Shown: positions 42,001 to 64,000, numbered from the stretch's first letter. The stretch is 64,000 bases of DNA from Candidatus Omnitrophota bacterium (GCA_021735655.1 JAIPGM010000001.1:96001-160000), one strand, 5' to 3'. Numbers and translations are program-made. Notes: generated from the sequence alone by a model not told the origin.

Positions 42001-45000
42001 ACAGCAACCAGTAGTCGGGATGATGGATAATTACCATTTAAATGGTCAAAGGGTTCGCTTTGCGCCTGAGGAAAGTTTAGCTGTAGTCGCAGAATTTGAT
42101 CGTGGTAGTTTTAGAAGAGCATTCAGTCCAAAATTAAGGACGATGATTATTGAAACTCATCCCGATGATTTAATCATTCATGCCGGTGCTACGGCAAATA
42201 TGTTTGTTAGTGAAACTAGGGGAATGATAACTGAGCTTATTCCGCAATATCCGGGATACCGCAATAATATGCCAATTTTTGTTACAGCAGTTCCTGATCC
42301 AGCCGGAGTAACTGATAATTTTGCTTTTAATTTTTTCCAAGGCAAATTAACTTCTTTGGAGGCGGCAAAAAGAGAAGTCCGGGCCCAGGAAGCGATCTTA
42401 AATGCTGGTTTTATTGGTTGGAATCAGACTGGCAATGCCAGTGAAAGGCACATTAATCTTGATTTAAGATTAAGCTTGATTAAAGCAGTCAGAAGGCCGG
42501 ATGGAAGCCTTGATTCTTATCGTAGTGTTTTTCAGAGATTAACTAAAAGTGAACTTGAAAAAATTGACGCTGTTGTAAGGGAGAATGCGGCTGATCAATA
42601 TTTTATGGTCCATCCGTTTAGCAATCATCCACACCATCGGGTTGTAACTCATGCCTTTTTAGAAGCGATTTACACTCACAATCCGCAAGCAACTATATAT
42701 TTTTGGGCTAATCAAGAAGAACACCAACAGTTAATGACCCAGGCTAATGTATTTTTTGTTTTTAGTGAGGGCATGGAGAATTGGAAAGGGTTAATTATTT
42801 TTAACGGAAACCATTCGCAAAATGAACGCCGAGGCGGAAATGGTGAATATTATTGTGATGCTGCTCGGAGTATGGATTTAGCTACCTGGGAAAATTTACA
42901 AGAAAGACTTGCTCGAGAGGAAACTAGTTCGGTAAATTTAAATAGTTTACCGCTTTGGCGACCGCATGCAGAAAGATTTGTAAAGGTAAGGATTGAGCCA
43001 GTCGGTCAAGATGTCCTGAGCACTCCTTTGGATAATGGGAAATCAACTAAGCAGCCAGAGAAAGAGGTAGTTTCTGATTCCCAAAACGATTTTTCTTTAG
43101 AGCAACTGAAAGCGCTTACGGTTGGTAGCCCTAATCTTTCTTTCGGGGTAGGTATTTTAGCTCGTCATCAAGAGGTGGATTTAATTATTCAGGCTTTTGG
43201 TAAGAGAATAATCAAGCGCGGTGCTTTTTACCAGACAAGACCTTGGGAGGAAACCTTAAAAACCGATTTAGCTTCACCTAACGCAGCTAAAGTAGATTTA
43301 GCCATTAAAACATTAGCCAGTTTAGGCGGAGATTACGCGGCCAGAGCTAGGCGCTTTGAACAAGATATAACCGTAATTGAAGTCGACCTGCCAACCCATT
43401 TTCTTTTATACGGCCAGGATTTAACCGGCGAGATTTATTATCAGCTTACTCATATTGGTCTTGAGCGAAGAATAATTTATCTTCCAAGTAAATATCTAGA
43501 GGATGCAAGTGGACCAGAGTTTGTAGCTACTATTTTTAACCACGATCAAAGCGAGCTTGAGGAGTTCATTCCTTTTTTATTAAGTGGCCGAAATATCACC
43601 GATCAAATGGTTGAGCAGGCTCATCAACGGGCCATGCAAGACGATCCTTTTGGTGTTTACCCCCAGGTCGATGACTTGCTTTCTGATATGCAGGCTTATG
43701 ATGATATGTTTACCCAATCGATGGTTGTAGCTCAAATTGCTGCCGTAGATTCAGCTGTTACTACAAAGAATCGTCAGCTATTAGATGCTTTAGCCTCCCG
43801 CACGCCAAGTGGGCCAGAAGCCTTAAAGGCTAAAGGCCTTTTATTTGAACTAGCCAACCTTGAAACTAAAATTGGTTGTTTGTATGAGGCATTAGGCCAA
43901 AGAAAAAGTGCAATCAGTCATTATCGTAGCGGCGTAGCCGCATTGTCCAGAGTCTCAAAAACAACTATAATTGATACTGGTTTGTTGCCGCTTCAATTAC
44001 AGGTAAGAATGCTTTACCTCTATGCTCGCGAAGGCATGTTTGGCCGTCTTCGAAGTGGTTTTCGTAAATTTTCCCAAGTTAAAATTGGTCGCCAAGCTGA
44101 GGCTTCTGAGGTTGAGCTTTTTGAATGGTATATGGATAGCAATTTTGTGCCGGTAAGAAGAGCTGTGGTTGGAATCCTGCGGCATCACATTACTTGTGGG
44201 CATAACAACTACCCTAAAGATCAGGTAATGACTACTGTTAGATATATTGAACAGTGTCAATATATTCCTTCGGATATAACCCCACGTCTTAAACCAGCTT
44301 ATCTTCAAATTAGAAACACTCCAAGCTTAGCTAATGTTTTTTCAGCCGCCGAATATTTTAGGAGACATAAAGTTCCCGGCTGGGATAAGGTTTTAGCTAA
44401 AACCTTAGGCGGTAATGGCCAGATGGAGGAAGAATATTTGGGTGAATTTGTTGAAGCTAAAGCAGCTGAAGATCAAGTTTGTTATTCGCGGGTAATCGAG
44501 CTTAGCCTTGAGGGCCACGGTCCAGAGATAGATTTTGTACTTGAAGTTGATCGGGCAAAGTATCATCGTAACAATCAAGGGCAATATGGTAATTTAGATG
44601 AGGGAATTTATCTTGGTGAATCCAAGACATTTAATCGACAATTTAACTTAGATTTGGTTACCGAACATACAATTGATGATAAACAAAGCAAATATCGTTT
44701 AGTGGCCGCAAGGTTAAATAAGCTTCCCGATCCAGTTTTTAACGGCCGCATGAAGGGTATTGTTTTTGCTATGGGGGGAAGCTCGGTTACGGCAGCGGGA
44801 GTTCTAGAGTTTAGGTTAAGACAAAGAGAAGTGGATGAGGGATTAGAAACTTTGAGCTTAGTTGAATATGTAGCTTACATCCCGGATACTATTGATGCTG
44901 ACGAAGAGATAACTTTAAGTGTTAAGGAGGAAATTTATATTATTAAATGGGTAAGAGAGTTAGTTGAGCGGGGAGTAATTGAAGAAAATGAGGTTACCCG

Positions 45001-48000
45001 CGTTGAGCGTGTATTTATGGAAATAGCTTCAACTAGCAGCCGTTATGTATTACAAAGTATAGTTTGTGCAAAGTTAAGAGAAAAAACCGGGGAAGGTGAT
45101 ACTTCTTCAGCCAAGCGTCAGTCAGAACAAATTTGGCAAGAAATTATAGCTGAGCTAGAGGCTGAAGCTTTTCCAAATCGAAAACCACTTGATAACGGCC
45201 GCGATGGTCAAGCTGATTTAGCTCGTCAACAGTTAGCTGAAAGTTTGAGAGGGCGCTTGACCGGATTGCTAGATTCTGGTCTTAATCCGGAAAATAGCCT
45301 ACTTGTAACTCATGTTGGTCGACCGAATAAGGCTGGCACGCTTAGGGGTTTGGGTTTACGAGTTTACGAGATGGTTATTCAAGGAGTCAATAAACTTTAT
45401 TATGACCGACGGACTGTAAGAACCATCCCTTTATTTTCTAATAGTTTAGATTGTCCTTATCCTGGTGGTTATCATTCCCAGGGTGGAATGCTTACACCGG
45501 AGGCTAGGCAGGATATTGTTAGCCGGGGAGATGTTTTTATTCTAAGCGGAGGTGAGCTTGAAATATGCTTGCAGATGACTTTTAGCGAATTAATCGATGC
45601 TTTAAATCAAGCTGGAAGAACTACGGTGATATTTGTTCCGCTTGAAGCAACTAGTAGATTTATAAATTTAGAGTCGGCAACCGGCTATGCTGATTATTTA
45701 AAAAGCCGAGCGATAAGCTATGAAGAGTATGATTTTACTAAAAACGAGGTAACTCTAGCTCAACCGGCTACGCCACAGGTATTATTAGTTTGGACTAAGA
45801 CCGCTCAGGAAACTCTTTATTGGTTAGATTTCATAGCTAGGCATCAAAGACTTGTTGCTGAGAAACTTATTGAATCTTTGGGCTCAACTGAGGCAAATGT
45901 ACGTAAAGATGCCGCCGCTAGAATAATTACTATTGCTAAATTAATTGGTCACAACCAAGAAGATAATATATTTGGTCGTCATCCTTTAGATTGGCTTTAT
46001 GGTCATGATGACCATCGCCAGACTACGCCGCAAGAACGCAGGCTTTTATCGGAAGTTTCTTGGTTTCCTTCTGATGCTGTTCATCGAGATGAGGAGCAAG
46101 TACTTTTAACCAATCGCCGAAGAGTAAAAAGCAGAGTAACTGAAGTAAGAAAATCTTTAAGAAATAGGATTTTGTTTGACGTTAAGGCAAAATTGGAATT
46201 ATTAAAACAGCGTTTAGCTGATTCTGAAATTCAGGCTGCAGTAGATTTGGTAAGCTTTGGCTTTGATTCAAGTTTACCGGATCAAGGATCACGCAAGATA
46301 GCTGTTCTTAGAAAATTAGAGAGAAATCTCCAAGAGCTAACTACCCAGATAGAAAGGGCTAAAGCTTCTGGTAGTATTGGAGTGATAATTGTGCCTTTAA
46401 TTGATGAGGCTTTAAGTAGTCTACGGCGGCACGTAAATACGATTAGACATTGGTCGGATTATAAAAAAGGAAGCTATGTGCTTAGGCAGTTAGTTGATTG
46501 GATGGTTCGAAAGCATTTTGAGCCGCAGCATGCTCAATATCGGCAGATAAAATCAGCTAAAGTTTTGGGACGAGTCGATAACGGAGATGAAAAATTTTGG
46601 CAACTTCCGATTTGGCCGTTGGCTGATAACGGTGAGGTTGATTTAGGCTTAACTGGCTGGATGCTTACTTCGCGACAACGGGCTCCGCCAGAATATTTTC
46701 AAAGAAGAAAAGTTTCCCTAGCCGAATTAGCTGGTTTAAAACCAATCCAACTTACCTTATTTAATCTTGATGATTTTACTGGTTCTGGGCAACCCTTAGA
46801 TAATGGCCGAGTGCCTCTCGATAATGGTAAACCTTTATTAGAAAATAGAGATAAACCTAAAGAAACAGGCAGCCACCTTAGAGTAATGCTGGGTTTTCTA
46901 AGTCCGATCAGAGATGAAACCAAAATAGATGAACCCTTGAGTATTTCCGTGTTAGCTGGAGTATTAAGAGATGAGTTTAAGGGCACGGTAGACGTTGCCA
47001 CGGTCCACCCTCTTGTTGAAAAGGGAGGCCTTGAAGGGGTAAAGGAAAGGATAAGAAAAGAACAGCCGGACATCTTAGGATTATCTTTGTTTTTTGGTAG
47101 TTTAGATTATTTAAGAGAATTAATGGCTTATATACGTACTTTGCCAGAAGAAGTTAGGCCTTTAGTGATACTTGGCAATGTGTTGGCTAAATATAATTTA
47201 GGATTGATTTTAAAGGAATTTCCAGAAGTTGGAATTTGTACTGGAGAAGGAGAAAATACTATACGAGATTTTGTGCGTTATTACCGGGGGGAGATGGGTC
47301 TTTTGCAGATTACCAATTTTGCCTATATACATCAAGGGGTACCGAGAGTAAATTTACCTCAACAACGCACTGATTTGTCTGATATTGGAATGCCTCAGCG
47401 GGATATTTTTTCTCACGTCATCAGAACCGGCGGGGTCGTATTTTTAGAAACAAGCCGTTCTTGTTCGCATAATTGTGCAATGTGTAGTCGTAAGACTTAT
47501 TTGGAAGGAGCAGAATTTTCTCAAGTAGGTTGGCGTGGACGTCCGCTTGAGGATGTCATAAGAGATATGGCTGATGTAAGTCGTCAAGGAGCCAGATTTG
47601 TTAATTTCGTTGATGAAGATATTTTTGGTGGAGGCCTTGTACGGGTTATGGAGCTTGCCCAGAGAATTATTTTTGCTAAGGCACGAGGCGAGATTCATCC
47701 CGATTTAACCTTTGGCAGTTCAGCTAGCGTGAGATCAATCTATGTCCAACCAGAAGGTGATACTAAAGCTAGGGCTCAGATTGAAGCCGATAACGAGCTG
47801 AGGATAGAGGCACTTACAAGATTAAAACAAGCTGGCTTAGTGGTTTTATTTACAGGTATCGAGTCAGGTTCTCCTACTCAGCTTGCTCGATACGGAAAAG
47901 ATGCCACAGTATTTGAAAATGAAATGGCCTTACGGATAATCGATGAAGCAGGCATACACAATGTTCCTGGTTTTATTATGTTTGATCAAAAGGTCACAAT

Positions 48001-51000
48001 CGAGGAGCTGCGAGAGGATATTGCATTTTTACGAAGAACCGGGATGGATAAAAAAATTACCTATCCGCTTAGAACTTACTATCCTTTAAGGGGTGCTATG
48101 TGCACTGATCAACTGGTGGTAGATGGTCTTGTGGATGCAGAGCGATATAATGCAAGTCAGTTAGCCTATGAATACGTTTATGAGGATCAAGATGCTGCTA
48201 CTTTGTTGTGGGCTTTAAAATCTTGGGAAAAAAGCCAAATGCTATTCTTTTGGATTATTAAGATAATTTTTCGTTCTTCACGGTTTGGTGAGCTATCACC
48301 GGAGACACAAGCATTATTCAAAGAGGTTATGGCTGATCAAACTGTTATTTTACTTGATTATTTGGAAGATTTAGTTAATTGCTCATCAAGTTCTCAATAC
48401 CCAGAGATTGATCTTAGATATAGTGATAGATTAATAAATACCATGCTGTCTATTTTAGGCTTAATTAACGAAGGTCAGCTATCTATAGATGGCTCACATC
48501 TTTCGGAAGTTATTTACGGAAGCATAACCAGGGAAATCGTCCGTGTGCATCTTTTACATTTGCCATTTACTTTAAATGATATTTTTGAAATGGTAAAAGT
48601 AAGGTTTGGTGCTGAACTTAGTCTGCCTATGCTCAAGAGAGCTTTAAGCAGCTTTGTGAACGAGGGCGCTATGGAGTATTGTGAAGGCAGGTATTCATTA
48701 ACAGCTAAATTTTGGGATTTAAAAGGAATGCCTTATTATGATTTGCCAAGACCATACCGAGGAGGCGAATCTAACCTTGCTCAAGCGAGTTTACCAGTTC
48801 CACATCTTGATGTATTTAGGCAAAGAGCAGGCATTTTAGAGTTAGAGGTAGCTTATAACCAAGTCAGAGTTTTTGGGGAAGTATTATACGCTGCAGTTGG
48901 TTTTATCCTTTTTGCTATAGTTGGTGTTTTGATTATCCATACTTTGGCTGGAGGGTTTGTGGTTGGCTTTTTCGGATTAGTTATATTTGTTTATTTTTAT
49001 TCCAAATCGTTTCCTAAATCAAAATATAAAATAGTTGAGCAAGGGTTGAAAATGTTTAGTGGTCAAAGAATTGGTAGCCAAGATTTCATAAAACTATCTT
49101 TGGTGTTTAGGGACCTTTTAGCTGATGATTGCGATAATATAATAATACAACTTCTTGCTCGATCGGGAATCGAAGCAGCTAATGAGCTTGCCCAGAATAG
49201 GTACCTAGAGGAAACCTTGGGCGTGCAGTCTCCCCTTGATAATGGTAAAGATCCCTTTCTTACAGTCGATATTAGCCAATTGCCAGGAATGCTGTTAAAT
49301 AGAAATTATCAGAAAGCAATTGCAATATTTGAGAGCTTAGACGTTTTTAAAGACGGTGACGCTTTGAGAGACTTGCTTTCTGGCTTCAGGGAAATGTATG
49401 AAAATAATTACGATTTCAGGTCACGTCTTCTAGAATGTTTCATCCATTTATATGAAACCCAGCGCCAGCAGTGGTCTAAGGCCGAAAGAACCTTAAGGGT
49501 AATCTATGAACAGCAGACAGCTGAGGAAGATTTATCTTTGCTGTGGGTGAGGAAAATTGCCGTTGATATTTGGTCTGAGATTGCAAGTAGAGAGATAAAA
49601 CTTTCTGATGAACAAATGGTACCGGTTGAACAGGTAGGAGTTGATCTACAGGTAACTGAGGTCTGTTGCTATGAGTGTCCTTGGTGTTTATATCATCACA
49701 CGCCAAAAGGCCCGGCCCGGAGAAACCTTCACCGTTTAAGCGAAGCCGAGGCCGTAGACATAGTCAGTCAGTTTATGGAGGCAGAAACCTTTTCTTTGGC
49801 GCCGTTTAGTTTCACCGGCGGGGAACCTTCAATGAATCGGAAAGTTTTATTTGCTGCTCTTGAGGCAGCTACCCGACGTCAGCAAGCTGGATTTATTAAT
49901 GTATTTAGTAATGGTATTTGGGCTCGAGACGTAGAGGCTGCTGAGCGTATGCTAAACGCTCTTGCTGAGAAAGCAATCATCAGACTGGTTATCAATAGTG
50001 GGCTTTTGCCCGAAGGCCTTGAGCGGATTAAGCATATTGTTGACGCTTACGGCAGATTGGATAGTTCAATACAATACCGCATAGAACTTGGTATAGCCGT
50101 TCCTTTATTGGGCGATGAGATTATAACTTATCTTGAATCAGTGCGGCAAGCGCTTAAGGGAAAATTTCTTATTCAGCCGTCTAATGGCGCTATTACTGCC
50201 GTAGACATGTTTGAAATGTATCATTTAACAAATTGTAAGGTTGGTATTCAATTGTCTAATAGTCGTATTCTCATTATACATCCTGAATCGATTGCTATAA
50301 GTCATGCTAATAAGGGTCGCCTTGCTTTAAGAGAAAAGCAGATTGAAGCTTACCGGCTTAACCGCCCGGTTTGGTCGTCATGGCAAAGCAATGGGTCGCG
50401 CTATGTGCAATTTGTGGCGCAAAGTGACCTTTGGGTTTTAGCTAATCCTTTTTTCTGGGGCTATGGCAATCCTCGGCAGTGGAGTTTTGATTTTATGAAT
50501 GTTAGTCAGCTACATGAAGCCTATCAGCGTGATCCGCTTTGGCAGATGCTTTCAACTGTGCCAGCCGAGGAGATTATAGAACAAATGCGGCAGCTTTTTG
50601 TCACAGTCCCTCAGGGCGTTGATCGTTGGTTATCTGGTCTTCATGCGGTCCATCCGATTGCTAGCAGTTTTGCCGCTGAACTTTTACAGGATTCGCGCGT
50701 GCGTTATTGGCTAAGAAGATGGCATAGTGGTGATTCAGTTAATGAGCCATATCCGGAGTTATTGATGCCGGAATTAAGTCAAAAACAAAATTCACCTAAA
50801 TCAATTCCTTTGGATAACGGCCGAGTGCCTCTTGATAATGGTAAACCGTTCATGCAAAAGTTTAAACCTTCAGAAACTCTAGGCTATTCAGTGATTAACG
50901 GTCCTAGACATAGAGTGATGATTATTAATGTTTTGCCGCAAGATAAACAAGCTTCTTTAGAAACTCAAACTCAGAGCATAATTTCACAAGTAGATTCAGC

Positions 51001-54000
51001 CTTAGCTAGAGAGGGTTTTAATAATAGTGATGTGGTTAAACAGGATATGTTTTTACGTGATCCGAGCCAAAGACCCGAGGTTAAAGAAATGCTAGGTAAT
51101 TATTATGGAAGGGCGCCTCCGGCAACCAGTTTTATTCATCAGCCGCCGATAACCGGTGAGCTAGCTGCTACTGAATTGATTGTCATTAAGGGGGAGGGGG
51201 TCCAAGTCTACCGAGTAAATAAATATGCAACCTTAATTAATGCTGACGGACTTTGGATGCTTTATGTGGCTGGAATTGAACCGGATGCTAATTTAACTGA
51301 TACCTATCAGCAGGCCTATAATACTTTTTTAAAGTTACAGACTGTTTTAGAAGAAGTTAGGCTTGGCGCGGTAAGCTTTAAATTTGAAGATGTAATTAGA
51401 ACCTGGCTTTTTGAACGTGAGATAGTTGGTTTTGATGATCAAGAAAAAACTCAAGAGAGATATCAAAAGCTTAATCAAGCCCGACGCGTTTTATTTGATA
51501 CGGCTGATTCTGGATCAGGGGTTATTTTTGGCCGTCGTCTGCATTGTCCATCTTCTTGGCTTCTTTCCTGGCGAACGAGGATTGCTTTTTGGTTTTTAAA
51601 GTTTTCTTTTACTCATCGAATAAAGAAATTCGAAAAAATATTATTCAAATTAGCCCGAGTCAGGCCTCCGGCTTCAACCGGAATCGGTGCTTTGCCGGAA
51701 TTTCAAGCCCAAGGAATAAACGTTGCCATTGGTCCGGCTTTTGTTTTTGAAGCTTTAGCTTTGTTCGCTGAAAGTAATCGAGGCGATGTTTTAATTCAGT
51801 TTATTGAAAACCCCGAACAAACTCCGGCTCATGCTTATTCCAAAAAAGTATTACCCAAGGGAGAAAAGAAAAAGAAAAAAGCTTCCCCGGCTTTTAGCCG
51901 TGGTATGGCTGTATTTATGGATTACATTTGGATAATCATTTCTGGAACAGCTTCAGTTAAAGGTGAAAAGGTAGTCTCTGTTGGTGATGTAAGAGGTCAA
52001 GCTGAGACCACGATTGATAATTTAAGATTAGTAGTTGGTCAGGCTGGAGCCCAGTTAAAAGATATACCGCAATTAAGAGTGTATATCAAGAATTGGCAGG
52101 ATTATCAGACTGTAAGGTCGGTAGTTGAAAAGCATTTTCCCGATACTCCGGCCCTATATCTTTTGGCTGATGTCTGTCGGCCAGAGTGGTTAGTTGAAAT
52201 TGAAGCCATGGCTTTTATTCCTCGAGAAGAAGGGGTTTCTAAGCCTTTAGACAATGGTAAAAATAGAATTCGGCAAGGTGAGATCTGGTCTCCTCACCGT
52301 GGCTGGCGGGATCCAGCTCCCTTGCCGGATTATATATCTGTTCCGCTCGACAATGGCAAAAGAACTCTAGATTCATTGCCAACCAGACTCAGGGTTTTCT
52401 TAAGACTTAATAATATTGATCCAGCTAAAACTTATTTATTTGCCATGAGCGGCGGTGATTGTGCCGGGCCAAATTCAGCTTATTATGGTGCAGTTAGAGA
52501 GGCTGATAAATATGGTTATAAAGTATTAGGGGTGTTGAATGGTTTTGAAGGGTTAGGGGCTAATCCGGATTTATTCGTTGATCAACTTATTTATATTACT
52601 TCCGAAGGCATTGAGCGATTAAAAGGAATGCCGAGTATTCATGTTGGGTCTTCTCGGGCTAAATTTAAGGATAAACGCGAAAATATTTTAGTTAATTGCG
52701 CTGCTTTTGCCGGAGTAATTTTTGTTGTTGGTGATGACCATTCTAAGCAAACCGGCGAGCTAGCTGAAAGCGGCATAGCAACTATAGCTATTCCCAAAAC
52801 TATTGATTATGACTTTTTGGCGGAATCTTTAGGGTCACATAGTGCTATTTCTGAGGCCCGGCGACTTTACCTACGGGCTCATCGCATGGCCCAAGAGGAT
52901 CATTTTGTTCAAGTTATTGAATTTATGGGACGTGATGCTGGCTGGCTAACCTTTTTGGCAGCTCAGCAGGTTGCTGGAGCTAACTTTATTCTTCTCCCGG
53001 AAAAAAGCGCTGGCTTTAAGGATGTTTTAATTAAAGCTTTGTCAGTTATTTTAGAGGAAGGTTATTTGACTATCGCTATGGCTGAAGGTTATAGCTTTAG
53101 AGATTTCCAGGAAAAAGATCGTATCTTTGGAGGGCCGCTGTTTTATAAATTCTTAGATATTATACCGTTTCTTAAGGCTAAATTTTATTCTAAAGGCCAA
53201 ACCGATGTACATGGTAACCCCAAATTATCAGGAATAGCTGAGTACTTGTCTTTAGCTATTCGTTATTTGCCACGCTTGGCCAAGCATGATGCCGATATAA
53301 ATAGGCTTTATCAAGCGATTAAACTTAAGTACCCACATTATTTTGGTACTGACTTGCGTTATAAGGCTAAGGGCGAGGTAATGCAGAATGTTCGTTTATC
53401 GATTTTAGGCTATATTTTAAGAGGCCTTCCTTCAGATGATTACGATACTAGATTGGGAGAGGCTTATGGAAGAGCCGCAGTTAGGTTACTTCAGGCCGGA
53501 AAAAGCGGTTTAGAAGTTACAATTAGTAAAACTTGTACTTTGCGTTCATCTAGTTGGTTAAGAGCTATTCTTAGGGGGGAAGGGGTGAAAGCTGTTCCAA
53601 TAGTTGAGGTAGCCATAAAACAATATGTGGCTAAAAGCGATGATCCGGCTAAGGCGGCTATAGCTTTTCATCTTAGCGATAAGAAAATAGCTGAGGCCGG
53701 GGTTTGGTGGCAAGGCTCCCAAGAACTTATTACCCATAAAAGAGTAAGTCAGCTAGTCCGCGAAAAAGATTTAGGCCCGAGCCCGCGCGAACAGGCGCGC
53801 AGATCTCAATATAGCGCAGCTATTTCAGCAGCCATCCATACTACAACATCAATTTTCGGTTTTAGAAAGGTCGATGGTTTAGATTCAGATGATTTAGCTC
53901 TTTATGCTGGCGATCAAACTCCACGCGATAAGAGTTTGCTTCCGGGACATAAACAGTATTGCTTGGCTGAGACCAAAGGCAGTACCATGATTCTTTTAGC

Positions 54001-57000
54001 TAATCCTTTAGCGGAAGTTAGATCGCCTTATCTGCGTGATTTACTACTTGATATTTTAGGTAAGATGACTGAGCGTGTTAGTTTCATTGATGAAAGTACC
54101 CGAAGGCTTGTTCAACGTAAGATGCGTGGTTATGTTAATTTAGTAGTTTCCGATAAGTTTTTATTGAGAGATTTTACTGAATCGACAGATTTATTTTCAA
54201 AGCTCTTATCTTTAGATCCAGTATTAAAGGCTCGCTATGAGTTTAATCAGTATTTTTTCGATCACGGAACCCCGGGTTTTATGGAGCTAATGTGCACATT
54301 AGTTTCAGCAATTACTCACTTGCCACAACTAGCTCAAGGTGATCCAGAGTTAATTGATGCAGTTCAGAGACTTTATGCGAATCGACCAGAGGTGTTCGGT
54401 AAAGATCCTGAACGCAAAGGTGAACTTATCTTAAAAAGTTTACGCCTTAATATGCCCAATCAGGTTATCGGAAGGAAACCGACTCCTTTAAGAGAGGCTG
54501 ACCTGCGACGTAGCGGAGTTTGGCTAGGTCGTCAAAAGCCGCTTGATAACGGAAAAGCAAAAGTAGTTTTAAAGCCAGGAAATATGGATTACCATTTAAG
54601 TGTGGCGCGGAATACTCATTTTAGCAATGCTGCTTCCAAAATTGTTCCTTGTTTTTTAGATAATTTAGCTAAGGCTCAAATCAAAGGAATGCATAAAGAA
54701 ATTAGTGCGGTATTAGTCCATGACGATCAGGGGAATATTCCGATTTTTGCCTCGGCTGATCGGGCCAAGCTAGATGGTTTTGCAATTAATCATTCTTTGA
54801 TTGCTCAGGCTTCTGGTATTCAAGTAGATAGAGGTTTTGCTCGAATTGTGCTCTTTTTTAGAGTTGAAGATGAAAAAGCCGATAGTGTAGCCATATTTCC
54901 TAATTCTTTTATAGATAAAACTGAGTTACTTAGTAAAGATTTAGACATAGCTTTTAGAGCCAAAGCTAAATTATTCGGTGATTTTTCAAAAATTGCTTTG
55001 TTAATTAAGGAAGTCTTTCTCCAGATGGGTTATACTCCAGAGTATATTGACACGATTTGGCTTTCTAATTTTGATGGCGGGGCTTTCGGGTTTAGTAATC
55101 CACGGAAAAAAGTTAAGACCTTTGGCGATGCTTTAGCTTTGATTGAGTTGATGACTACCTTAGAGACACAGATACCTTTAGATAATGGTCGTAAGACAAA
55201 TGATGATCAAGCTAAATCAGAGGGTGTCAGCCGTCGCGATTTCGAGATTAGATCTCTTCTCGGTGGGCTTTGTGCCTTTTGTGGTGGAAGCTTGCCGGAG
55301 TTTGCCGGTGCTGCGGCTGGTTCAGCGGCAAGCCTATCGGAAATTCAAGCTAGACTTAAGGTAATGAAGTTATTTGAACAAGGAGTCAGAGATTTATTAA
55401 TTAATGGAGGTATAGTTGCTCGGCCAGCTTTTATCAGTCCAGCTGAGTGGGGTATTTTGAATTTTGATCTTTACCGTTTTAATTTAGTCCAAGTTATGGA
55501 TGATTGTGGTGGTTCTATGAATGCTGCCGAGCGGGTTGCTCAAGGGGTTAGAGACTTTGCCCAATACGTTAATGATCCGCGACTACAAAGATATTTTTCA
55601 CAGCAAGCTCGAGAGAAATTAGTTCAGCAGAGAAAGGATAACAGCCAAATTAGAAGAGAAATAGCTGATATCAAGATTTTACTTGAAATAGCTCGAGACG
55701 CCTACCATCACATGAGTTCGCCGGTAGATTTACCGGGAATAGTTAAGCAATTAGAATTTGAGTTATTTCTTAAAAGAGGGCAAGTCGGTTTTAATTCGGC
55801 TAGTGTTAAGTTGGAAGCTTTGTTGGTAGATAAAAATGATGAGCCTTTGGATAACGGAAGAACTATTGACCAGCAAAAAACTATTCTAAGGGAGCAGGTA
55901 CCGAGTCTTAGCGATAGAGCTCACTCAGCTAAACTCGCCGCAATTTATTCAAATCGTTTAAATGCTAAATTATCTGACAAAGGTTGGGGTATGCCCGGTG
56001 ATCTTAGGTTAGTTAAGGGAATAACCCTAACCGTAAACAGAGTTATTGCTCCTTGTTATGAGCTGTTTTTAAATATTATGCGTCACGGAAGGGGTGGAGA
56101 ATTTAAGGCGGATTATCGTCAAGGTTGGCTGGGTGAAAAAGAATTAACGGTTGTTGGTTTTGACCAGGGTTTGGGTATTGCTAATCCGGATCAGCTTTTC
56201 GCTGATAAGTTAGAGCTACTAGCTATTGCTGAAGATACAGCTGATTTAGACAAGAGGGAATTAAGTCGAGGAATTGTTCATATCGTGCTTGATCCGGACA
56301 GCGTGATGCTTGAAACCAGAGGCATAAGGTGGGCTAGGTCAATATTAGATGTTGAAGTTCGTTCAGGATTGTTTATGCCGGTAGTTACTTTGCAGCCGAG
56401 AGGCAAAAGTGAGGTTAATAAAGGTTTACGTTGGACTTTGGGATGGAAGAGGCAAGCCAGTCCTTTAGACAACGGCAGACAATCTCTGATTCCGGCTTTA
56501 GCTGCTGCTGAGCATATACCTTATGGAGAAGTAATCACAAAAATACTTGTAGTTTCAGGAATGATAATGATAGCTGTAGTAATGCTTAACTTTTTTTATA
56601 TAGTAGTTCGTATACTAATTGTCGAAGTAAATGATTTGATAAAACGATCCAGAAAGAAAACTAAGCCTAAGGGTCTATCGGCCTATGCTCGTTCAATGGG
56701 ATTATATTTTTTAAGACAAAGATCATCTGGCCTAGATAAATATTATGTCAAAGGGTCTTTCTCGCGTTTCTTTAGTGTAGATACTAATAAAAGAAAACCT
56801 AAATCTGGTCACGATAAACCGCTCGATAACGGAAAAGATAAAGACCAGAGTCCAGACAAGCGTATTCCGATAGCAAAATTATTACCACAGTTACTTAAAC
56901 AATCCCAGGCTGAGCTGTCTCAAGGTCCGCCTCATACAATTAGCCAAACCAGTGAAATATTAATGCGAGTTGGCGAGCTAACAGTGTCACTTAGCTACCT

Positions 57001-60000
57001 AAGAAGACAGTTAGGTATATATTTAAGAGCTAATCCTTCAGTTGAGATAACTCATAATATTTCTTCCGGTGGTTCAGTTCGTAATCACAGTGGTTTACTC
57101 CCTGGAGAAACCTTAATTGAGGTAAGGACCGCTGGGCGACCGACTAGATTAGTAAAAGTAATTCGGGTTGGTAGTTTTGGTTCAGAGATTGGCCTAAAAA
57201 GTCCTAGGCTCAGAGAATGGATAAATTCCCGATATCAAGAGTTAGCTGAGTTTGTAAACTTGGGCGATGAGTTTGAATGGAGAACTAAGAATGGTAGGCC
57301 GCGTTTGCCCGGTGATTTGTATCCGGGTTATGAAATTTTAGGATATCGAATGCTTAAAGATGGAAGGACCAGCGCTGATTTTATATTTATTTTTGAAAGA
57401 CAAAGCTCTAAGAAATTGAGAGGAGATGAAGGGTTAGTTAGATTAATGGTTTCTAATCCTAAGAACCTAAATCGACCGGTATACTTGGGAATGATTTGTC
57501 GCGATCCGAGATTTTTTGAATTAGCTGAGCGACTAACGACTGGTGTAACCCTTAGCGATATAGTAGCGACCCCTAAGGGTGAACCGCTTGATAACGGAAA
57601 GAATAACCCTTATTCTGATGCTGAAATCGAAGCTATGACTGCCCAGATAGCTCCTCAAGGTTTAGCTGAGTGGGATGAACAGATAGCGAGTTTAAGCTTA
57701 GCCGCTGAGAGTTTCTTGGAAACTGAAAAAGCAGTAAGAGATCATTTGGCGATGCTTAATCAACGCTTTGGTCCATTGGGAATTCGTTTCACTGCCACCC
57801 AGGTGGGTTTAGTTGCAATTATGAGTAAACCAGCAGATCTGGAACATAGTGATGCTTTACAGGAAGAGGTATTCCGTTACTATGAATTGGCTGAAGAAGC
57901 TAAACGGGCTCAAACTAACTGTCAGCAATGTCATAATAATTTATTAAATAGTTTTAGTGGTATTTTAGAACCGGCCATTAGTATGGCGGTTACCATCAGC
58001 CGGAGCCAAAATCGACCAGCTCAGTTTAATCAGCTTAGGAGTGCGATTATTGTTTCTCAAGAGCGTTGGCAGGCAGCTAAAGAAATTGAAAAAAGCTTAG
58101 CAGCTGTTGTTTTTGAGGGAGCATCTATCCATCTTCCGGAAACAATTCTTCCTCAAGGAGTAAGCTCTGAGGAAGCTGAGCGGTTGTTTAAAGATGTGTT
58201 CATCGATATTAAATCACCTTATCTAAGATTACGATTGATATCGCTTGATTTATACTTTTTATTGTTTCGTTTAGCTATCGGTACAATTGAACCAGTTCTT
58301 GGTTACAATCGGGCTTTAAGTTTAGCCCAGCGTGCGGCCACCCTTGAGAAACTTAACGAAAGACTTCTTCCAGAAAATCGCGGGGTTAGAGGAATACATC
58401 AGATTTTTGAATCAGCTAACGGCAATTTAGGTGAAATCAGAGCAATTATTGCTGAACGCCAAAGTCGGATAGTAGCAATTGATCAGCCAGCTGACTTATT
58501 AGCTTTAGATATTTTAGTTGCGCGAATTGAAGATGATTGTGTTTTAATGCAACGGGCTTTAAGTCTTGATAAAAGAGAAGCGCTACCGACTCTTGCACGT
58601 AGATTATTAAAATTAGCTGCTGATATTAAAGCACAGCGTCAAAGCACTCCGGTGGGTGCTGTATTCTCGGCACTTTTACCTAAGAACTCCCAGGGTAAAC
58701 AGAAAGAATCACCGACTAAACAGAATGCTTTTATTGTTGTTACCATGAGTGCTAACCAAGCTCCGATGGTTCACATTACTAATAAGCCGGCTGGTTTGCT
58801 GGATAATGAAGTTGGTCGGATTGCCTTTAGAGCCCTTGATTGTTTTAGTTGGCAAGATTTAGAAATTAGTGAAGGGGTTGATCGACTTAATTTATTAGGC
58901 GCACTTGGTCCGCTTAGTTATGGAATAACTCGTGAGCTTCGTCAGAAAGGTCTATTTATGTTAACCGGCGAGATATACAATTTGTTAAAAACGATAAGAA
59001 ATTTAGGCCGGGTTAAATTAATTATTCTTCCGAATCAAACAGCTCAACCTCAGGCAATACTTGATCTTGAGAGAACTTTAGAATTAGCTGATAGTCCTTT
59101 AGATAACGGCCGACCTTTGTCAGTTTATGAAGCAAATAAAAGGTTTTTTATGGCTTTGGGAGAATTAGTTCAGTGGCAACAAAGTTCACCAAAAAATTAC
59201 TGGTTTAAAAATACTGACCAGTTTTTGCAAGACTTGGCTGGTTTTCGTGAAAGATTTGAGGAATTAGTTGGTCAACCTCAGCTTGGAGAATTTCCTCAGT
59301 CATTAACTTCTTTGCTTGAAACCAATGAGAGGGTGGTGGGTGTTTTTCGTTACCAGTTTTATGCCGAAATTGAAGAGTGGCGAGATGAAGTTCTAGCTGT
59401 TCTCACCAATTTAGAAGCCGATAGCGGATATCTGTTTGAGGCAGTAACCGAATTAAAAGAGTTAGTTTCAATACACAAAGATAGTATTCTTCATTTTCAA
59501 ACCTTTATTGAGAATATAGCTAAAATTCAGAGTACTATAATTTCAGAGATAATGAGAAGGTTAATTCAAGTTGATGAGCGGCTCGATCAGTTACTTGAAC
59601 AAATTGAACAAGAAGGTTCAGAAGTTAGCCAAATTTTAACTGAGCTATCTGAGGTATTTTCTGATATATATGGTTTACATTTTGAAGTTTGTATAACTAC
59701 AGCTAGTCGTTATCTTACAAAAGGTAACGATTTAGTTAAGGAAATATTTCAATATTTTCTTGATAGATTAGATGAGGCGAAACCGCTTGATAATGGCCGA
59801 AGACCTAGGCGGCGTTCAGATAAAGGTGAAAGTAAGTGGGATATTTTAGATCGGTTTAGCCAAAAACTCAGAACTGTGGATACGGAAGTATTAGCGGACG
59901 TAGACCAACAAAGAAGCATTGGAGCTAAGAGAAGAATTTTAACTAGAATCGGTATAGATGAAGCTAGCCAATTAGACGGAGCTTTCTTGCTAGGCGCAGT

Positions 60001-63000
60001 TAGCAAAGCCTTAAAGCGCCAGGTTGGAAATTTAAGCCATGATTCAAGCCCGATTACCGTAACTGAGCCGCTTATTTATGCTGGAGTTGGTCGTTTTCTA
60101 ATTTGCTATAAAGATGAAAATATTGACGATGGCCTAGCAGTTAAAATTGCTAGCAGCGAAGCTTCTTTGCGTAATGCTGATCTTTATTCTTTAAACGGAG
60201 TCCGCATCGCCATTAATCGTTTAGGCACAGGCTTAGCTGCCAGCACAATGATTATTGATGCCCGTTGGCCAGAGGTTAGGTCTTTTGTTTTTAACGTTAT
60301 TGATCAAGCTGGACATCCTAGAAGGATTGAAACTCAAATCGCTATCGTCCAACAAAAAGTTTTACCGTTAATTGAGTATTTAAAACGTTTAGGTCGTCGA
60401 GGCTCTAAGGACCAAGATGTATTAAAGGCAATTACCTATGTTGATAAGTTTAAACAGCTTATAATTGCTATGTATAAACAAGGGGTTATTGATGATGATA
60501 CTTTTAATATTGTGGGAAATTACGGGATATTAAAGGTTAATGATAGTATTGTAATTTTTGATCTCGGTGATCTTTCTGATTCAGCTGATCGAGCTGCAGG
60601 TTTTGTTAGAAATTTAGATAGCTACAACCAACAGATGTTTGAAGCCTTTTTAGAAATAGACGGTGTTTTCCTTGATGAACGGATTGCCGATTATTTTATA
60701 AATAACCCGTTAAAAAGAGAAGATTTTATTTCTGGCCAAGGAGATCTATTCGGATCCGAATACGATCGGGAAAGTTCAAGAATGGTTTTCCCTTACGATG
60801 AGGAAACAGTAAGGATGTGGGGGGTTCGGGCTTTTGATTTAGTAAGCCCCGATACAGAGGCTAGCCAGCAACCACTCAATAATGGAAAAGCTAGGACTAT
60901 TTCTCGTTTTGAACAAGAAACTAGAACTGAGCCTTATCTTGTTCCTGAAGCTGAAGGCGTTGTATATCAAGCAGTGGCTAAATTTTTTAGAGCTAATGGA
61001 GATAGCCAGACATTTAGAGTTCTAGATCTTTTCAGTGGAGCCCATACCTATATACCGACCTTGAACCAAGTTCAGGTTGAAGAGTGTATTGGCGTAGGCA
61101 TAAGGGCGCAAGAGTTAGAATTGAATCCTAACTTAAAAGGTAACCCTAGCTACTTAGTTTTAGATTTAAATCAGGATAAGTTGCCTGAGCAGTGGAATCA
61201 GCGTTTTGATTTAGTCTTAGTGGTTAACGGGGTAGCTTACGTTGAGGATCATTTCAGATTATTTGCTGAGGCTGCAACTGTGACTAGACTCGGTGGCAGA
61301 TTATTAGTTGTTTTTACTACTGAAGCCTATTCTACCGAGATTTCAAAAACTTGGAAATATTTAGGTAGCGGTTCTTTAGGCCAGAGAAATAAAATTAGAC
61401 ATATTAGTGAATCAATAGCTAGAGTTCGCCAGTTTGGGCCTGTTGCCCATGGACATTTTACTTATACCATTCAACATGGCTTAGATATTTATGATAAGCC
61501 TTTAGAAATCATTACTGCGGTCAGAAAGAGTAGTGCTATTCCGCTCGATAACGGTAAAGTGCGTTTGCCGATAAGTCCTTTGAGGTTAGCTTCGTTAGTA
61601 ATAGTTCCCTGGTTTGCTATCGGATTATCGATTTATTTTGGTGATTGGTACGTTGATACAGTTAAATCATCGGATTTAAACGCAATGTTAGTTAAAGGGT
61701 TTTTAGGTGGTCTAGCTTGTGGTTTTGGGATGTATGTAAAGCAGACAATTAGTGGCCAAACCCTGAGCCGTAAAAATTTCGGAAAGATACTTCGTTGGAC
61801 TTTAGCCGGATCAATATATTTAGGTTTAATTGTTTTTGGTGCCTGGTATGGATTTTTGAAAGCTAATGTTCCCAGTGATGTTTGGAAGGTTATTTTAGAT
61901 ATAACTTTATTTTCAGCTTTCATCGGTTTACCGCTAAACTATTTAATTCAAAGATATATTGTTGACTATGACAGCTACCGTAAAAAAACAATTAAAAAGC
62001 ATATTGTTAATTATCTACGTCTTTGGATTTTTAATGCCAGCTGGTGGGGATTTTGGTTAGGCCTTTCTTGGTCACTTTGGCCGGATAGTATCGACCTTAT
62101 TGTGGCCAATGTAAGGATTATTTGGTCCGGCATATTTATTTATTATCTTAGTGAGTGGGTTGAATCTGGTTCAAGTAGTCTACAAGCGTCATCTAAACCA
62201 CTCGATAACGGCCATCAACCGCGTAAAATTATTTGGATTAATTTTGGTGGTTGGCGCGGCTATTGGTTTGCGGCAACCGGCATTGAAACTTTAGCCGGTT
62301 TTATTGAGAAAAATTATTCCGGCGAGTTAGAGCAGGAAGTTTTTTATTATAACCCTAGCCAGATTACTCAATTTAGCGAGCATCTAAGTCAGGCCTCAGC
62401 TGATTTTATTTGTTTTTCAGTTAATCCGATGTATTTTGATTTGGCTATGGATTTTGCTCAAGAGATTCAAGCTAGTTTAGAGGCTTCACCTAACACGAGA
62501 TTAGTTTTTGGTAACCGGGGAATATCTGGCAAGGAAGCAGCAATCCTAAAAGCTTTTCCTGAAGCTTTAGTAGTAACCAACGAAGGTGAAGAAGCTATGC
62601 TGGGAATTGTTAAAGGCGACGCCCGAGAGTCAATTCCTAATCTTTGGTATGTTGATCAAAACGGAGAAGCTAAATTTACTTATCCTCAGGTACTTTCGGC
62701 AGCTGATTACGTGGCTCCTTCTAAAAATATTCGCAAGATCAATGAACAGCCGCTTCCTTGGTATCAGGATGTTGGCTTTGTTGAGGGAACTCGTGATTGT
62801 TCAAAAGCTAGTTCGCGGCCTTGCACTTTTTGTGTGCATAGTTGTCGTCGAGCTCAGATACCAAAAAATCAATGGCGCTTGCTTAATGTTGCTGAGACTT
62901 TAAAGAGTATCGAGGCAGAAGTTAATTCCGGTAAAAGTACAATCAACATTGTAGCTGAAGATTTATTGGGTAGCGATCCAAAGCAAGTAGAACTTTTATT

Positions 63001-64000: not shown

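Follow-up and report, generated by a model that had tools for sequence, protein, structure and literature searches.

OxsB (5UL2, 5UL3 and 5UL4) and its homologue AlsB are cobalamin-dependent radical-SAM (rSAM) enzymes responsible for ring contraction in oxetanocin A and albucidin biosynthesis, acting on 2'-deoxyadenosine phosphates. OxsB is a free protein that works with a CX4CX2C cysteine loop (PMC9204698), the active B12-rSAM enzyme PoyC has Cx7Cx2C (PMC5682303), and RadicalSAM.org lists variants from CX4 to CX11 (PMC9477430). The class 1 cobalamin-dependent (Cbl-)rSAM fold includes a five-stranded Rossmann domain and a β-hairpin (PMC13331322), and the residue beneath cobalt varies in bona fide enzymes, being Asn, Arg or Trp (PMC9204698).

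Within the Omnitrophota, a 2026 preprint counted 90 proteins of at least 10,000 aa with the rSAM family PF04055 (10.64898/2026.06.07.730766). The occurrence of rSAM domains in Omnitrophota giant proteins is therefore already on record and not a new context, and the description of such modules as unexpected in a metabolic polyprotein, made in an initial annotation of the DNA analyzed here, was overstated. West-Roberts et al. (2023) noted a lack of information on cleavage points, for want of which the giant proteins could not be split (10.1101/2023.11.21.568195). Neither preprint describes the type of rSAM module present or a conserved inter-module motif.

Here, we analyzed a 64-kb stretch of Omnitrophota DNA (hereafter, the window) and consider it likely that it encodes three genuine, probably active rSAM modules, M1, M2 and M15, fused in frame in an Omnitrophota-type giant multi-enzyme open reading frame (ORF), with M1 and M15 being OxsB-like class 1 cobalamin-dependent enzymes and M2 unrelated to them.

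Three rSAM modules in a giant ORF

All modules are held by one ORF:

2..64000, + strand: single ORF of 21,333 codons, open at both window ends

The + frame from nt 2 contains no stop in 21,333 codons, compared with 1,041-2,590 stops in each of the other five frames, confirming that the modules are situated inside a giant multi-enzyme ORF. Pfam domains fall in this frame along its whole length, and at least 17 distinct Pfam families tile its at least 21,333 aa, including PFK, FBPase, phosphorylase, methyltransferases, HATPase, HAD, NUDIX and radical SAM. A Kyte-Doolittle scan found 23 strongly hydrophobic segments, with transmembrane (TM) helices scattered across the ORF. These features, namely a single ORF of at least 10,000 aa (here far more), many enzyme families and interspersed TM helices, are those that define giant proteins, and the ORF shares them with the Omnitrophota ‘multi-enzyme metabolic cluster’ proteins (10.64898/2026.06.07.730766; 10.1101/2023.11.21.568195). 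The best module homologues also come from Omnitrophota genomes. An Rfam search of the 64-kb window gave no match. A scan of the entire translation gave exactly three Cx(3-9)Cx2C motifs, one each in M1, M2 and M15, where the initial annotation had placed three rSAM modules, and the alignment of each module's family shows these cysteines to be conserved.

The features of M1 are as follows:

46814..49231, + strand: M1, 806 aa, OxsB-like cobalamin-type rSAM module with C-terminal extension and TM hairpin (Pfam, OxsB match, homologues)
46934..47272, + strand: cobalamin-binding-type Rossmann domain, aa 41-153 (PF02310; alignment to the OxsB Cbl domain)
47078-47095, 47171-47185 and 47243-47257, + strand: Rossmann motifs GLSLFF, LGNVL and GEGEN, respectively
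47447..48031, + strand: radical-SAM core (PF04055, aa 212-406; motifs equated with those of OxsB, PMC9204698)
47462-47485, 47609-47629, 47855-47872, 47882-47899 and 47969-47986, + strand: core motifs CSHNCAMC, VDEDIFG, GIESGS, LARYGK and GFIMFD, respectively
48881..49003, + strand: C-terminal hydrophobic hairpin with two putative TM helices (Kyte-Doolittle scan, sequence)

M1 scores 39.8 bits against the Pfam Radical_SAM model, above the gathering cutoff of 29.5, and 29.7 bits (E 6.3e-7) against the B12-binding model PF02310, slightly below the cutoff of 32.1. Its best PDB sequence match is OxsB (5UL2, E 9.4e-34), and its homologues, 51, 44 and 43% identical, are stand-alone or fused proteins, the 51% and 44% ones being from Omnitrophota MAGs. 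Searches of the GTDB genomes using the M1 protein and a degenerate DNA pattern for PLDNGRVPLDNGK returned no match and no close orthologue, and the window contains no taxonomic marker gene. The modules would be located in the cytoplasm, tethered by TM hairpins.

M2 follows M1 directly:

49232..50806, + strand: M2, 525 aa, single-cluster rSAM module of a rare family, without B12 domain (PF04055, family alignment)
49646..50152, + strand: radical-SAM β/α core, with CCYECPWC at 49664-49687 and TGGEP at 49814-49828
50243..50797, + strand: conserved C-terminal domain, W.YP..EFWGYG.PR.W ... AELTQDA.VRY.LR ... YPEL.MP.L

Its Radical_SAM score is 28.9 bits (E 1.5e-6), marginally under the Pfam cutoff of 29.5. 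Both Cx3Cx2C and TGGEP are kept in all three family members that cover the region, and the core alternates β and α elements in both alignment and predicted structure. The initial annotation had described the motifs of M1 (CSHNCAMC) and M2 (CxxxCxxC and GGEP) as canonical. M2 would comprise a helical N-terminal domain (the first ~120 aa are predicted helical), a canonical Cx3Cx2C/GGEP core and a family-specific C-terminal domain, with no cobalamin domain. This C-terminal domain is also found without an rSAM core, in P0022 and P0023. A search of 1.84 billion representatives gave only 9 homologues, and another Omnitrophota giant protein contains at least one of them; one Omnitrophota homologue is 28% identical. 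By sequence, M2 finds no relative in the PDB, nor any match in a word-indexed protein search, and its AlphaFold model is poor (pLDDT 56), the weak Foldseek match to the radical-SAM epimerase EpeE (E 7e-4) being only a hint.

The first 90-110 residues of the M2 core, from Cx3Cx2C through GGEP to the third strand, resemble YydG/EpeE, viperin, MoaA and HxsC (E 3e-6 to 1e-4). However, M2 scores at least 10-fold below the cutoffs of these families and lacks both auxiliary-cluster cysteines, of which none was found in the family alignment, and the viperin C-terminal motifs, while its helical N-terminal and family-specific C-terminal domains are peculiar to it. Identity as a prokaryotic viperin (pVip) was rejected, as only model positions 3-85 match, at 21-24 bits, and the NCBIfam viperin model gives 25 bits against a cutoff of 180. 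The order of M1 and M2 recalls AlsB/AlsA, in which a second, non-B12 rSAM also comes directly after a B12-type one. No homology was found between M2 and the second rSAMs beside plasmid-borne OxsB-like genes.

The third module lies at the end of the window:

62198..64000, + strand: M15, 601 aa in the window, OxsB-like cobalamin-type rSAM module with a Cx7Cx2C loop; runs off the window, folded part ending near nt 63770
62222..62677, + strand: five-stranded Rossmann domain and β-hairpin, aa 9-160 (model secondary structure, OxsB alignment)
62414-62425, 62507-62521 and 62579-62593, + strand: Rossmann motifs FSVN, FGNRG and NEGEE, respectively
62771..63397, + strand: radical-SAM core (OxsB alignment, model)
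62798..62833, + strand: Cys loop CSKASSRPCTFC, with C201, C209 and C212 (family alignments)
62951-62971, 63173-63190, 63200-63217 and 63287-63304, + strand: core motifs VAEDLLG, GFESGS, LKRYNK and GFINFD, respectively
63416..63769, + strand: C-terminal helix bundle, aa 407-524 (model helices, pLDDT 86-98)

M15 has no Pfam match to PF04055 or PF02310 even at E<=1. HMM recognition, the test set in the initial annotation, therefore succeeded for the M1 core, fell just short for the M1 B12 domain and the M2 core, and failed for M15, whose relationship was recovered by BLASTP against M1 (E 5e-28, 26% identity), by phmmer against OxsB (E 4.8e-19, or 3.5e-66 with the M15 family profile), by NCBIfam B12-rSAM models (E 6e-6 to 2e-5, far under cutoffs) and by Foldseek. 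The AlphaFold model (pLDDT 81.6, pTM 0.81) has a barrel at pLDDT 88-98, strands at 9-16, 44-50, 70-75, 101-105 and 124-126, and a hairpin at 149-152/158-160. Its first Foldseek match is OxsB 5UL4 (E 4e-24, TM 0.67, 17% identity, 645 columns aligned), followed by MgmA (9CCB), TsrM (6WTE/6WTF), CysS (9N1B/9N1D) and TokK (7KDX), all at E 6e-15 to 6e-12. These four share the domain order and fold of M15, but all are methyltransferases with canonical Cx3Cx2C, and their sequence likeness to M1 and M15 is far below that of OxsB. Two of the modules therefore carry an N-terminal cobalamin-type Rossmann domain, as annotated at the outset: M1 by PF02310 and OxsB alignment, M15 by its model and OxsB alignment, with none in M2.

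In both M1 and M15, a Rossmann domain for cobalamin would be followed by an rSAM domain that forms a partial TIM barrel and by a bundle of helices on the C-terminal side, an arrangement shared with OxsB, including its β-hairpin. Also in common with OxsB are the GN, GE, GGE-type, ribose (GxESGS), Lys and GFIxFD motifs and a variable or non-canonical Cys loop. In contrast, domain I at the N-terminus of the four-domain OxsB is absent here: only about 10-40 residues precede the Rossmann domain in M1 and M15, and the alignments begin at OxsB residue 120-169. OxsB is accompanied by the HD phosphohydrolase OxsA, whereas M1 and M15 are modules of a >21,000-aa ORF in which Pfam found no HD domain within the 64 kb. 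M1 and M15 are paralogues that separated long ago, and both belong to the OxsB-like branch of the class 1 Cbl-rSAM enzymes. Because each is nearer to stand-alone genes of other genomes than to the other, they represent separate entries into the giant gene.

Cysteine loop and cobalamin-type domains

In the alignment of the two modules, CSHN----CAMC of M1 is placed against the M15 Cys loop. C201, C209 and C212 are invariant in a 19-sequence alignment, and would hold the M15 [4Fe-4S] cluster with 7 residues between the first two ligands. The initial annotation gave the motif as C-x7-C-x2-C-x3-C, which is literally present, but the fourth cysteine (C216, in CVHSC) is not conserved among homologues and so is not part of the motif. 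Across 23 relatives, the first spacing is Cx3 in the M1 family, Cx4 in OxsB, Cx5 in the stand-alone M15 homologues and Cx7 in M15, and the alignments indicate that the Cx7 spacing arose inside the Cx5 family through a 2-residue insertion. The SAM-binding motifs of both modules (xEDxxG, GxESGS, the K of RYxK, and GFIxFD) align with OxsB E363, E436, K448 and I474 (PMC9204698). In M15, D255, E328, S329, K340, I366 and D369 are invariant in alignments of 16-19 relatives including M15 itself, and G105, N106, G130 and E131 are invariant or nearly so across the M1 and M15 families. M15 would keep the geometry of the last two ligands together with the SAM and cobalamin contacts.

It had been proposed that the module at 62215 may bind its cluster differently or be inactive, and neither idea is supported by the conserved cysteines or by the loop lengths of relatives. 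A degenerate, catalytically dead M15, retained as a structural or binding domain with a disrupted Cys motif that no longer binds a SAM-cleaving cluster, would fit the missing Pfam Radical_SAM and B12-binding matches, the non-canonical Cx7 spacing and the lower model confidence in the Cys loop (pLDDT only 66-72), yet we regard it as very unlikely. The three cysteines and the SAM-contact residues, E254/D255, E328, K340 and I366, are invariant, and the whole family of stand-alone homologues (36-43% identity) has Cx5Cx2C, with members carrying precomputed PF04055 matches. Given that M15 retains the ligand cysteines and the residues that contact SAM and cobalamin in OxsB, that loop length varies within the clade, and that the OxsB loop and the PoyC Cx7Cx2C loop are both functional (PMC9204698, PMC5682303), inactivity is improbable, and Cx7Cx2C appears from the alignments to be a longer loop in a clade of varying loop length and not the sign of a dead enzyme. 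The likeness to PoyC and PoyB, B12-rSAM C-methyltransferases of polytheonamide, extends to this motif in an active enzyme, but no specific sequence relationship was detected, and RiPP C-methyltransferase models match only M1, weakly. A separate question is whether the Rossmann domain of M1, M15 or both is vestigial, which would make them rSAM enzymes of the ordinary type whose B12-like domain has a structural role and binds no cobalamin. The subthreshold B12-binding score of M1, the missing PF02310 match of M15, and the position of OxsB Asn186 (loop L-S-V-N186), which lies beneath the cobalt in OxsB and is Phe in M1 (L-S-L-F) and Phe or Gly across its family, would be consistent with this, and cobalamin goes unmentioned in the 2026 preprint (10.64898/2026.06.07.730766). 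We nevertheless judge vestigial domains unlikely, as both families keep the GN and GE motifs, which position cobalamin, with little or no variation, M15 retains S-V-N (in FSVN) with its Asn at the Asn186 position, the M15 model has the class 1 five-stranded Rossmann fold and β-hairpin (PMC13331322), and bona fide enzymes themselves differ in the residue under cobalt (PMC9204698). Cobalamin binding by M1 and M15 is thus the reading that we prefer.

Substrates and partner genes

No equivalog function can be assigned to the modules, as all NCBIfam matches are far below their cutoffs. By analogy, the substrates may be phosphorylated nucleosides or sugars. This tentative suggestion draws on the known case of OxsB, on the phosphohydrolases with which relatives are paired, and on enzymes for sugar phosphates and nucleotides in other parts of the ORF. 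The paired phosphohydrolases comprise a HAD fusion, EEP or Metallophos, SurE with NUDIX, NUDIX alone, and a diphosphatase. The conserved neighbors of stand-alone M15 homologues are a TPR/FRG protein and an EEP phosphoesterase; HMMs built from these neighbors found no TPR/FRG or EEP counterpart in the giant ORF within the 64-kb window, so the giant gene, as far as the window covers it, did not take up the M15-family cassette. Among the PADLOC models, none covers M1, M15 or the stand-alone cassette of the M15 family, and no M15 relative was found in viral contigs.

The rSAM modules might instead be protein or peptide modifiers, methylases or epimerases acting on the giant protein or on neighboring modules and not on small phosphorylated metabolites. 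Among the best NCBIfam matches are the MCR glutamine C-methyltransferase and RiPP C-methyltransferases for M1, and the YydG peptide epimerase and HxsC for M2; the M2 model weakly matches EpeE, MgmA ranks second structurally for M15, and a Streptomyces relative has a PqqD gene nearby. We consider such a role improbable, since these scores are far under the family cutoffs (for instance 57 against 360 bits), M2 is without the auxiliary-cluster cysteines of YydG/EpeE, the relatives are paired with nucleotidases and NUDIX hydrolases, and the nucleotide-modifying OxsB is by far the nearest characterized relative (E 1e-19 to 1e-34, against 2e-7 for MgmA). As OxsB is not a methylase, the earlier statement that B12-rSAM enzymes typically methylate was too generic for M1 and M15. 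An alternative of another kind, that the 64-kb frame results from faulty assembly or annotation, or is an array of pseudogenes in decay, with modules that are not expressed as described, could draw on the fact that neither the start nor the stop codon of the ORF lies within the window and that public collections gave no relative more than 51% identical to M1, M2 or M15. It is extremely unlikely in our view, given 21,333 stop-free codons where every other frame has more than 1,000 stops, 53 in-frame junction motifs written with 40 different 15-mers, intact catalytic residues in the modules, and a chromosome-scale Omnitrophota record that contains a similar giant fragment with a junction motif of its own, hundreds of such proteins having been reported.

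Junction motifs and the polyprotein reading

The motif PLDNG[K/R] divides the ORF into protein-sized modules, and is doubled immediately ahead of M1:

46793..46831, + strand: double junction motif PLDNGR-V-PLDNGK, directly upstream of M1

A second double motif, at 50807-50845, lies upstream of a RidA module. M1, M2 and M15 each have stand-alone homologues whose ends match the PLDNG[K/R] junctions. A nucleotide-level origin of the motif was ruled out by its 40 distinct 15-mers and by D-codon use equal to that of the rest of the ORF. A 2A-like ribosome-skipping reading was also considered, but PLDNG[K/R] does not fit the 2A consensus, DxExNPGP, which is described for eukaryotic ribosomes. Other giant genes have other motifs, [NS]HGMSQG in the Omnitrophota chromosome CP070807.1 and the prepilin-type G|[FS][TS]L[IV]ELL in another contig.

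The junctions may be candidate cleavage sites, a newer point than the rSAM context. On this basis we raise, as a possibility that falls well short of even, that the ORF codes for a genuine metabolic polyprotein in a bacterium, from which the rSAM and about 50 other modules are freed by site-specific cleavage at PLDNG|[K/R], with giant genes differing in their lineage-specific ‘punctuation’. If so, this would be the first time that candidate cleavage sites have been defined for giant proteins of the Omnitrophota, and cleavage would explain how cytoplasmic Fe-S, SAM-dependent and ATP-dependent enzymes share one frame with N-out membrane proteins.

M1, M2 and M15 add new and divergent representatives to enzyme classes already known. 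M2 defines an rSAM family that is very rare, and M1 and M15 carry the OxsB-like branch, the least understood cobalamin-dependent rSAM type, into an uncultivated phylum, displaying with their relatives a graded Cys-loop series (Cx3, Cx4, Cx5 and Cx7) inside one clade. The three modules are good probes of whether giant bacterial genes act as one protein or as many, and the junction motifs provide concrete sites at which cleavage of giant proteins can be tested.

Three radical SAM modules in one open frame

The plus-strand frame from nt 2 runs across the entire window as 21,333 codons without a stop; the remaining five frames contain 1,041-2,590 stops each, and no conventional ORF of at least 150 aa is present in the window. 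GC content is ~40%, with positive GC skew throughout. In this single frame, Pfam identifies an FKS-type 1,3-beta-glucan synthase, HAD, NUDIX, several methyltransferases, a PEP-utilising enzyme, HATPase_c, guanylate kinase, protein-isoaspartate methyltransferase, a double RidA, two phosphofructokinase modules (28838-30868 and 52343-54538, plus frame), FBPase and a module resembling phosphorylase; Pfam gave no protease domain anywhere in the 64-kb window. The FKS domain is of eukaryote type (PF02364, E 2e-54, about nt 7200-8700). With many Pfam families in one frame, the ORF agrees with the 'multi-enzyme metabolic cluster' giant proteins known from Omnitrophota (10.64898/2026.06.07.730766). The same work counted PF04055 in 90 long Omnitrophota proteins, and radical SAM (rSAM) within such proteins is thus already recorded, at census level.

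The motif Cx(3-9)Cx2C occurs only three times in all 21,333 aa, once in each of the following modules.

Radical SAM modules of the giant ORF
M1, 46814-49231, plus strand: Pfam Radical_SAM 39.8 bits (cutoff 29.5); B12-binding domain 29.7 bits, E 6e-7 (cutoff 32.1, not reached)
M2, 49232-50806, plus strand: Pfam Radical_SAM 28.9 bits, E 1.5e-6; TGGEP; B12 domain absent
M15, 62198 to window end, plus strand: no Pfam match even at E<=1

These are exactly the three modules that the initial annotation had placed here; its observation is confirmed and its interpretation supported in part. It had named failure of HMMs to recognise the B12-binding or rSAM core as refuting it, and read literally this is the outcome for M15. 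BLASTP nevertheless aligns M15 with M1 (E 5e-28, 26% identity over 389 aa), pairing CSHN----CAMC of M1 with CSKASSRPCTFC of M15, and at the sequence level M15 is clearly a paralogue of M1. The three modules comprise OxsB-like class 1 cobalamin-dependent (Cbl) rSAM enzymes and one rare new rSAM family.

M1 and M15 as relatives of OxsB

The closest solved structure by sequence to both M1 (E 9.4e-34) and M15 (E 4.8e-19) is that of OxsB, a cobalamin-dependent rSAM enzyme from the oxetanocin A pathway. A 16-sequence family profile matches OxsB at E 3.5e-66, and the second-ranked structure, MgmA, is at least 7 orders of magnitude weaker. An AlphaFold model of M15, computed from the 16-sequence family alignment, is confident (pLDDT 81.6, pTM 0.81); its parts are a Rossmann domain of five strands with a beta-hairpin behind it, a beta/alpha barrel and a helix bundle, the class 1 Cbl-rSAM layout (PMC13331322). 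Foldseek with this model places OxsB at the top (E 4e-24, TM 0.67), followed by MgmA, TsrM, CysS and TokK. When cofactor-contacting residues of OxsB (PMC9204698) are mapped onto the family, the GN and GE cobalamin-positioning motifs, the GGE-type Glu, the ribose-motif Glu of GxESGS, the Lys of RYxK and the Ile of GFIxFD are all kept, invariant or nearly so across 16-19 relatives. At the position of OxsB Asn186, M15 and its family retain S-V-N, whereas M1's family has Phe or Gly. NCBIfam B12-rSAM equivalogs match the modules only far below threshold, and therefore a specific function is not transferable.

The initial annotation read the cysteines of M15 as C-x7-C-x2-C-x3-C and considered that the module might bind its cluster differently or be inactive. 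The fourth cysteine (C216) is not conserved among relatives and drops out of the motif; the three ligand cysteines are invariant in their alignment.

Spacing of the cluster-binding cysteines
M1 and five relatives: Cx3Cx2C
OxsB (PMC9204698) and one metagenomic group: Cx4Cx2C
All 11 stand-alone M15 homologues: Cx5Cx2C (SRGCSKKSACTFC)
M15: Cx7Cx2C

Set against these clade loop lengths, M15 carries a 2-residue insertion in an already variable loop. Precedents also exist: PoyB and PoyC are proposed to have Cx7Cx2C, PoyC being an active B12-rSAM enzyme (PMC5682303), and RadicalSAM.org holds megaclusters with CX4 to CX11 spacings (PMC9477430). The unusual spacing is thereby explained and, because the loop varies within the clade, the ligand cysteines are invariant and precedents are known, inactivity is unlikely; the sequence suggests an active enzyme.

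M1 is 51% (1,328 aa), 44% (1,219 aa) and 43% (688 aa) identical to three proteins, the first two encoded by ordinary genes in Omnitrophota MAGs, one of them as a fusion with a HAD hydrolase. For M15 the relatives are stand-alone proteins of about 540 aa (36-43% identity), whose start codons fall within a few residues of the M15 N-terminus in the alignment. The 26% identity between M1 and M15 is far below that of each to free genes, and by this comparison the two are old paralogues, each of which joined the giant gene on its own.

Genes for the stand-alone M15 homologues lie in a conserved cassette: a gene for a TPR or FRG protein (330-370 aa) stands directly upstream of the rSAM gene and overlaps it, usually with an endonuclease/exonuclease/phosphatase (EEP) gene upstream of that; at one locus EEP and Metallophos are fused in a single protein. 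Frequent neighbours are of defence type (KwaA/KwaB, type ISP, HEPN/NTase, HNH). Within the window, the giant ORF lacks all of the cassette partners. The cassette is not in PADLOC and may be an uncharacterised nucleotide-modifying system. Plasmid-borne relatives of M1 adjoin SurE nucleotidase and NUDIX (Sphingobium), a second rSAM and NUDIX (Agrobacterium), a second rSAM and inorganic diphosphatase (Enterococcus), or EEP (Streptomyces).

Loci of relatives
M15-family cassettes: L003 1833-5237; L004 6687-10077; L005 7020-10386; L006; L008 2337-5055; L010 2939-7617; L011
Operons of plasmid-borne OxsB-like M1 relatives: L015 5015-8176; L018 3785-6918; L019 3503-7373; L020 2827-7335

These phosphohydrolase neighbours, compared with the OxsB/OxsA and AlsB/AlsA pairs (PMC13331322), hint that M1- and M15-type substrates could be phosphorylated nucleosides or sugars. 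One OxsB-like plasmid relative of M1 sits between two further rSAM genes, next to PfkB and SIS genes.

M2, a very rare family, and the proposed working of the modules

HMMER, run exhaustively against 1.84 billion representatives, returned only 9 M2 homologues at E<=1e-3. Among them are a partial protein of 835 aa encoded in a MAG, an N-terminal half (301 aa) that is anchored in the membrane, and the N-terminal end of a protein of 4,662 aa in the Omnitrophota chromosome-scale record CP070807.1; in the locus as read, this protein begins just past a stretch of N. The family alignment comprises a helical N-terminal domain, the Cx3Cx2C and TGGEP motifs, a core of beta/alpha type and a conserved C-terminal domain also found without the rSAM core; cysteines for auxiliary clusters are absent. 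Confidence in the AlphaFold model is poor (pLDDT 56). Its match to the epimerase EpeE is weak (E 7e-4), as are NCBIfam and PADLOC matches to YydG, viperin, HxsC and MoaA, and all of these likenesses are confined to the N-terminal half of the barrel, which is generic. The description that fits M2 best is a member of a new and very rare rSAM family.

Directly after M2 lies a double RidA/L-PSP module (M3, 50828-52243), with a 688-aa homologue (E 1e-66, L013 50-2116) encoded 2.7 kb upstream of P0022, a protein that includes the C-terminal domain of M2. Two unrelated sequences therefore place M2-type and RidA-type units near one another.

All three modules would use standard rSAM chemistry, a reduced [4Fe-4S] cluster cleaving SAM to a 5'-deoxyadenosyl radical, and M1 and M15 would hold cobalamin beside the cluster by analogy with OxsB. 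They would face the cytoplasm, given their need for Fe-S clusters and SAM and that of neighbouring modules for ATP, would be tethered by TM hairpins (e.g. 48881-49003), and would act either inside the intact protein or once released.

Recurrent junction motifs

From nt 11636 onward, P-L-[D/N]-N-G occurs 53 times (range 11636-62215): 50 copies of PLDNG, against 0.015 expected from composition, and 3 of PLNNG. The next residue is K or R at 46 of these 53 sites. Their DNA takes the form of 40 different 15-mers, and the constraint is therefore at the protein level. The motif cuts the ORF product into modules 33-1,200 aa long; M1 starts precisely at a junction (46814), and the ends of modules between junctions coincide with the termini of stand-alone homologues. 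TM segments frequently start 15-35 aa past a junction. The first 3,878 aa (nt 2-11635) lack PLDNG and have about 17 hydrophobic segments.

Junctions and associated features (plus frame)
46793, 46814, 49232, 50807, 50828, 62198: example junctions
12686-12850, 18122-18310, 56462-56818, 61541-61650: stretches in which a hydrophobic segment begins 15-35 aa past a junction
11636-11737 and 12563-12685: mini-modules between junctions, PLDNGKQNRQSPPS...AV[AT]GPASK twice
12686 and 15650: recurring module start, PLDNGKDV[ES]RAEH[VI]
31718-32515: protein-L-isoaspartate O-methyltransferase (PCMT) module

The repeated mini-modules and recurring module start point to internal duplications. The PCMT module shares its ORF with 53 Asn-Gly-containing junctions, and no sequence deamidates and forms isoaspartate more readily than Asn-Gly. 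Just 3' of the stand-alone rSAM gene at two M15-family loci (L005 10555, L006 5273), a frame encodes ...CCKAPVDNGF..., whose faint likeness to the junction motif is probably chance.

The Omnitrophota giant-protein fragment P0020 (L007 3001-16989, CP070807.1) carries a different motif, [NS]HGM[SF]Q(G), in 13 copies at module-sized spacing; it shares the M2 and PCMT module types with the window, and in both the local motif borders them at equivalent positions. On a third contig (L012 2-7614, JGI Ga0366832_1061835), modules are parted by prepilin-like G[FS][TS]L[IV]ELL and then TM hairpins. Its large consecutive genes encode P0028 and P0019, with an M2-type rSAM, and its prepilin-peptidase-like sites read GFTLVELLLVL, GSTLIELLIGL, GFSLIELLIAL and GFTLIELLVAT; a TM hairpin follows every one of these sites.

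The simplest reading of these sequences is that the lineage-specific motifs are candidate cleavage sites, although a conserved element for docking or linking could possibly account for the junction motif. In the module at 56462, KRSRKKTKPK follows a single long hydrophobic stretch, which suggests an N-out, C-in orientation that would be hard to attain without a free N-terminus. West-Roberts et al. (2023 preprint) noted that absent cleavage-point information blocked their analysis; the words 'linker' and 'polyprotein' were not found in their text, nor 'linker', 'motif', 'cleav', 'polyprotein' or 'fusion' in that of the 2026 preprint (10.64898/2026.06.07.730766), and a literature search for 'PLDNG' returned no relevant paper. 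The junction motifs are a more novel lead than the rSAM modules themselves.
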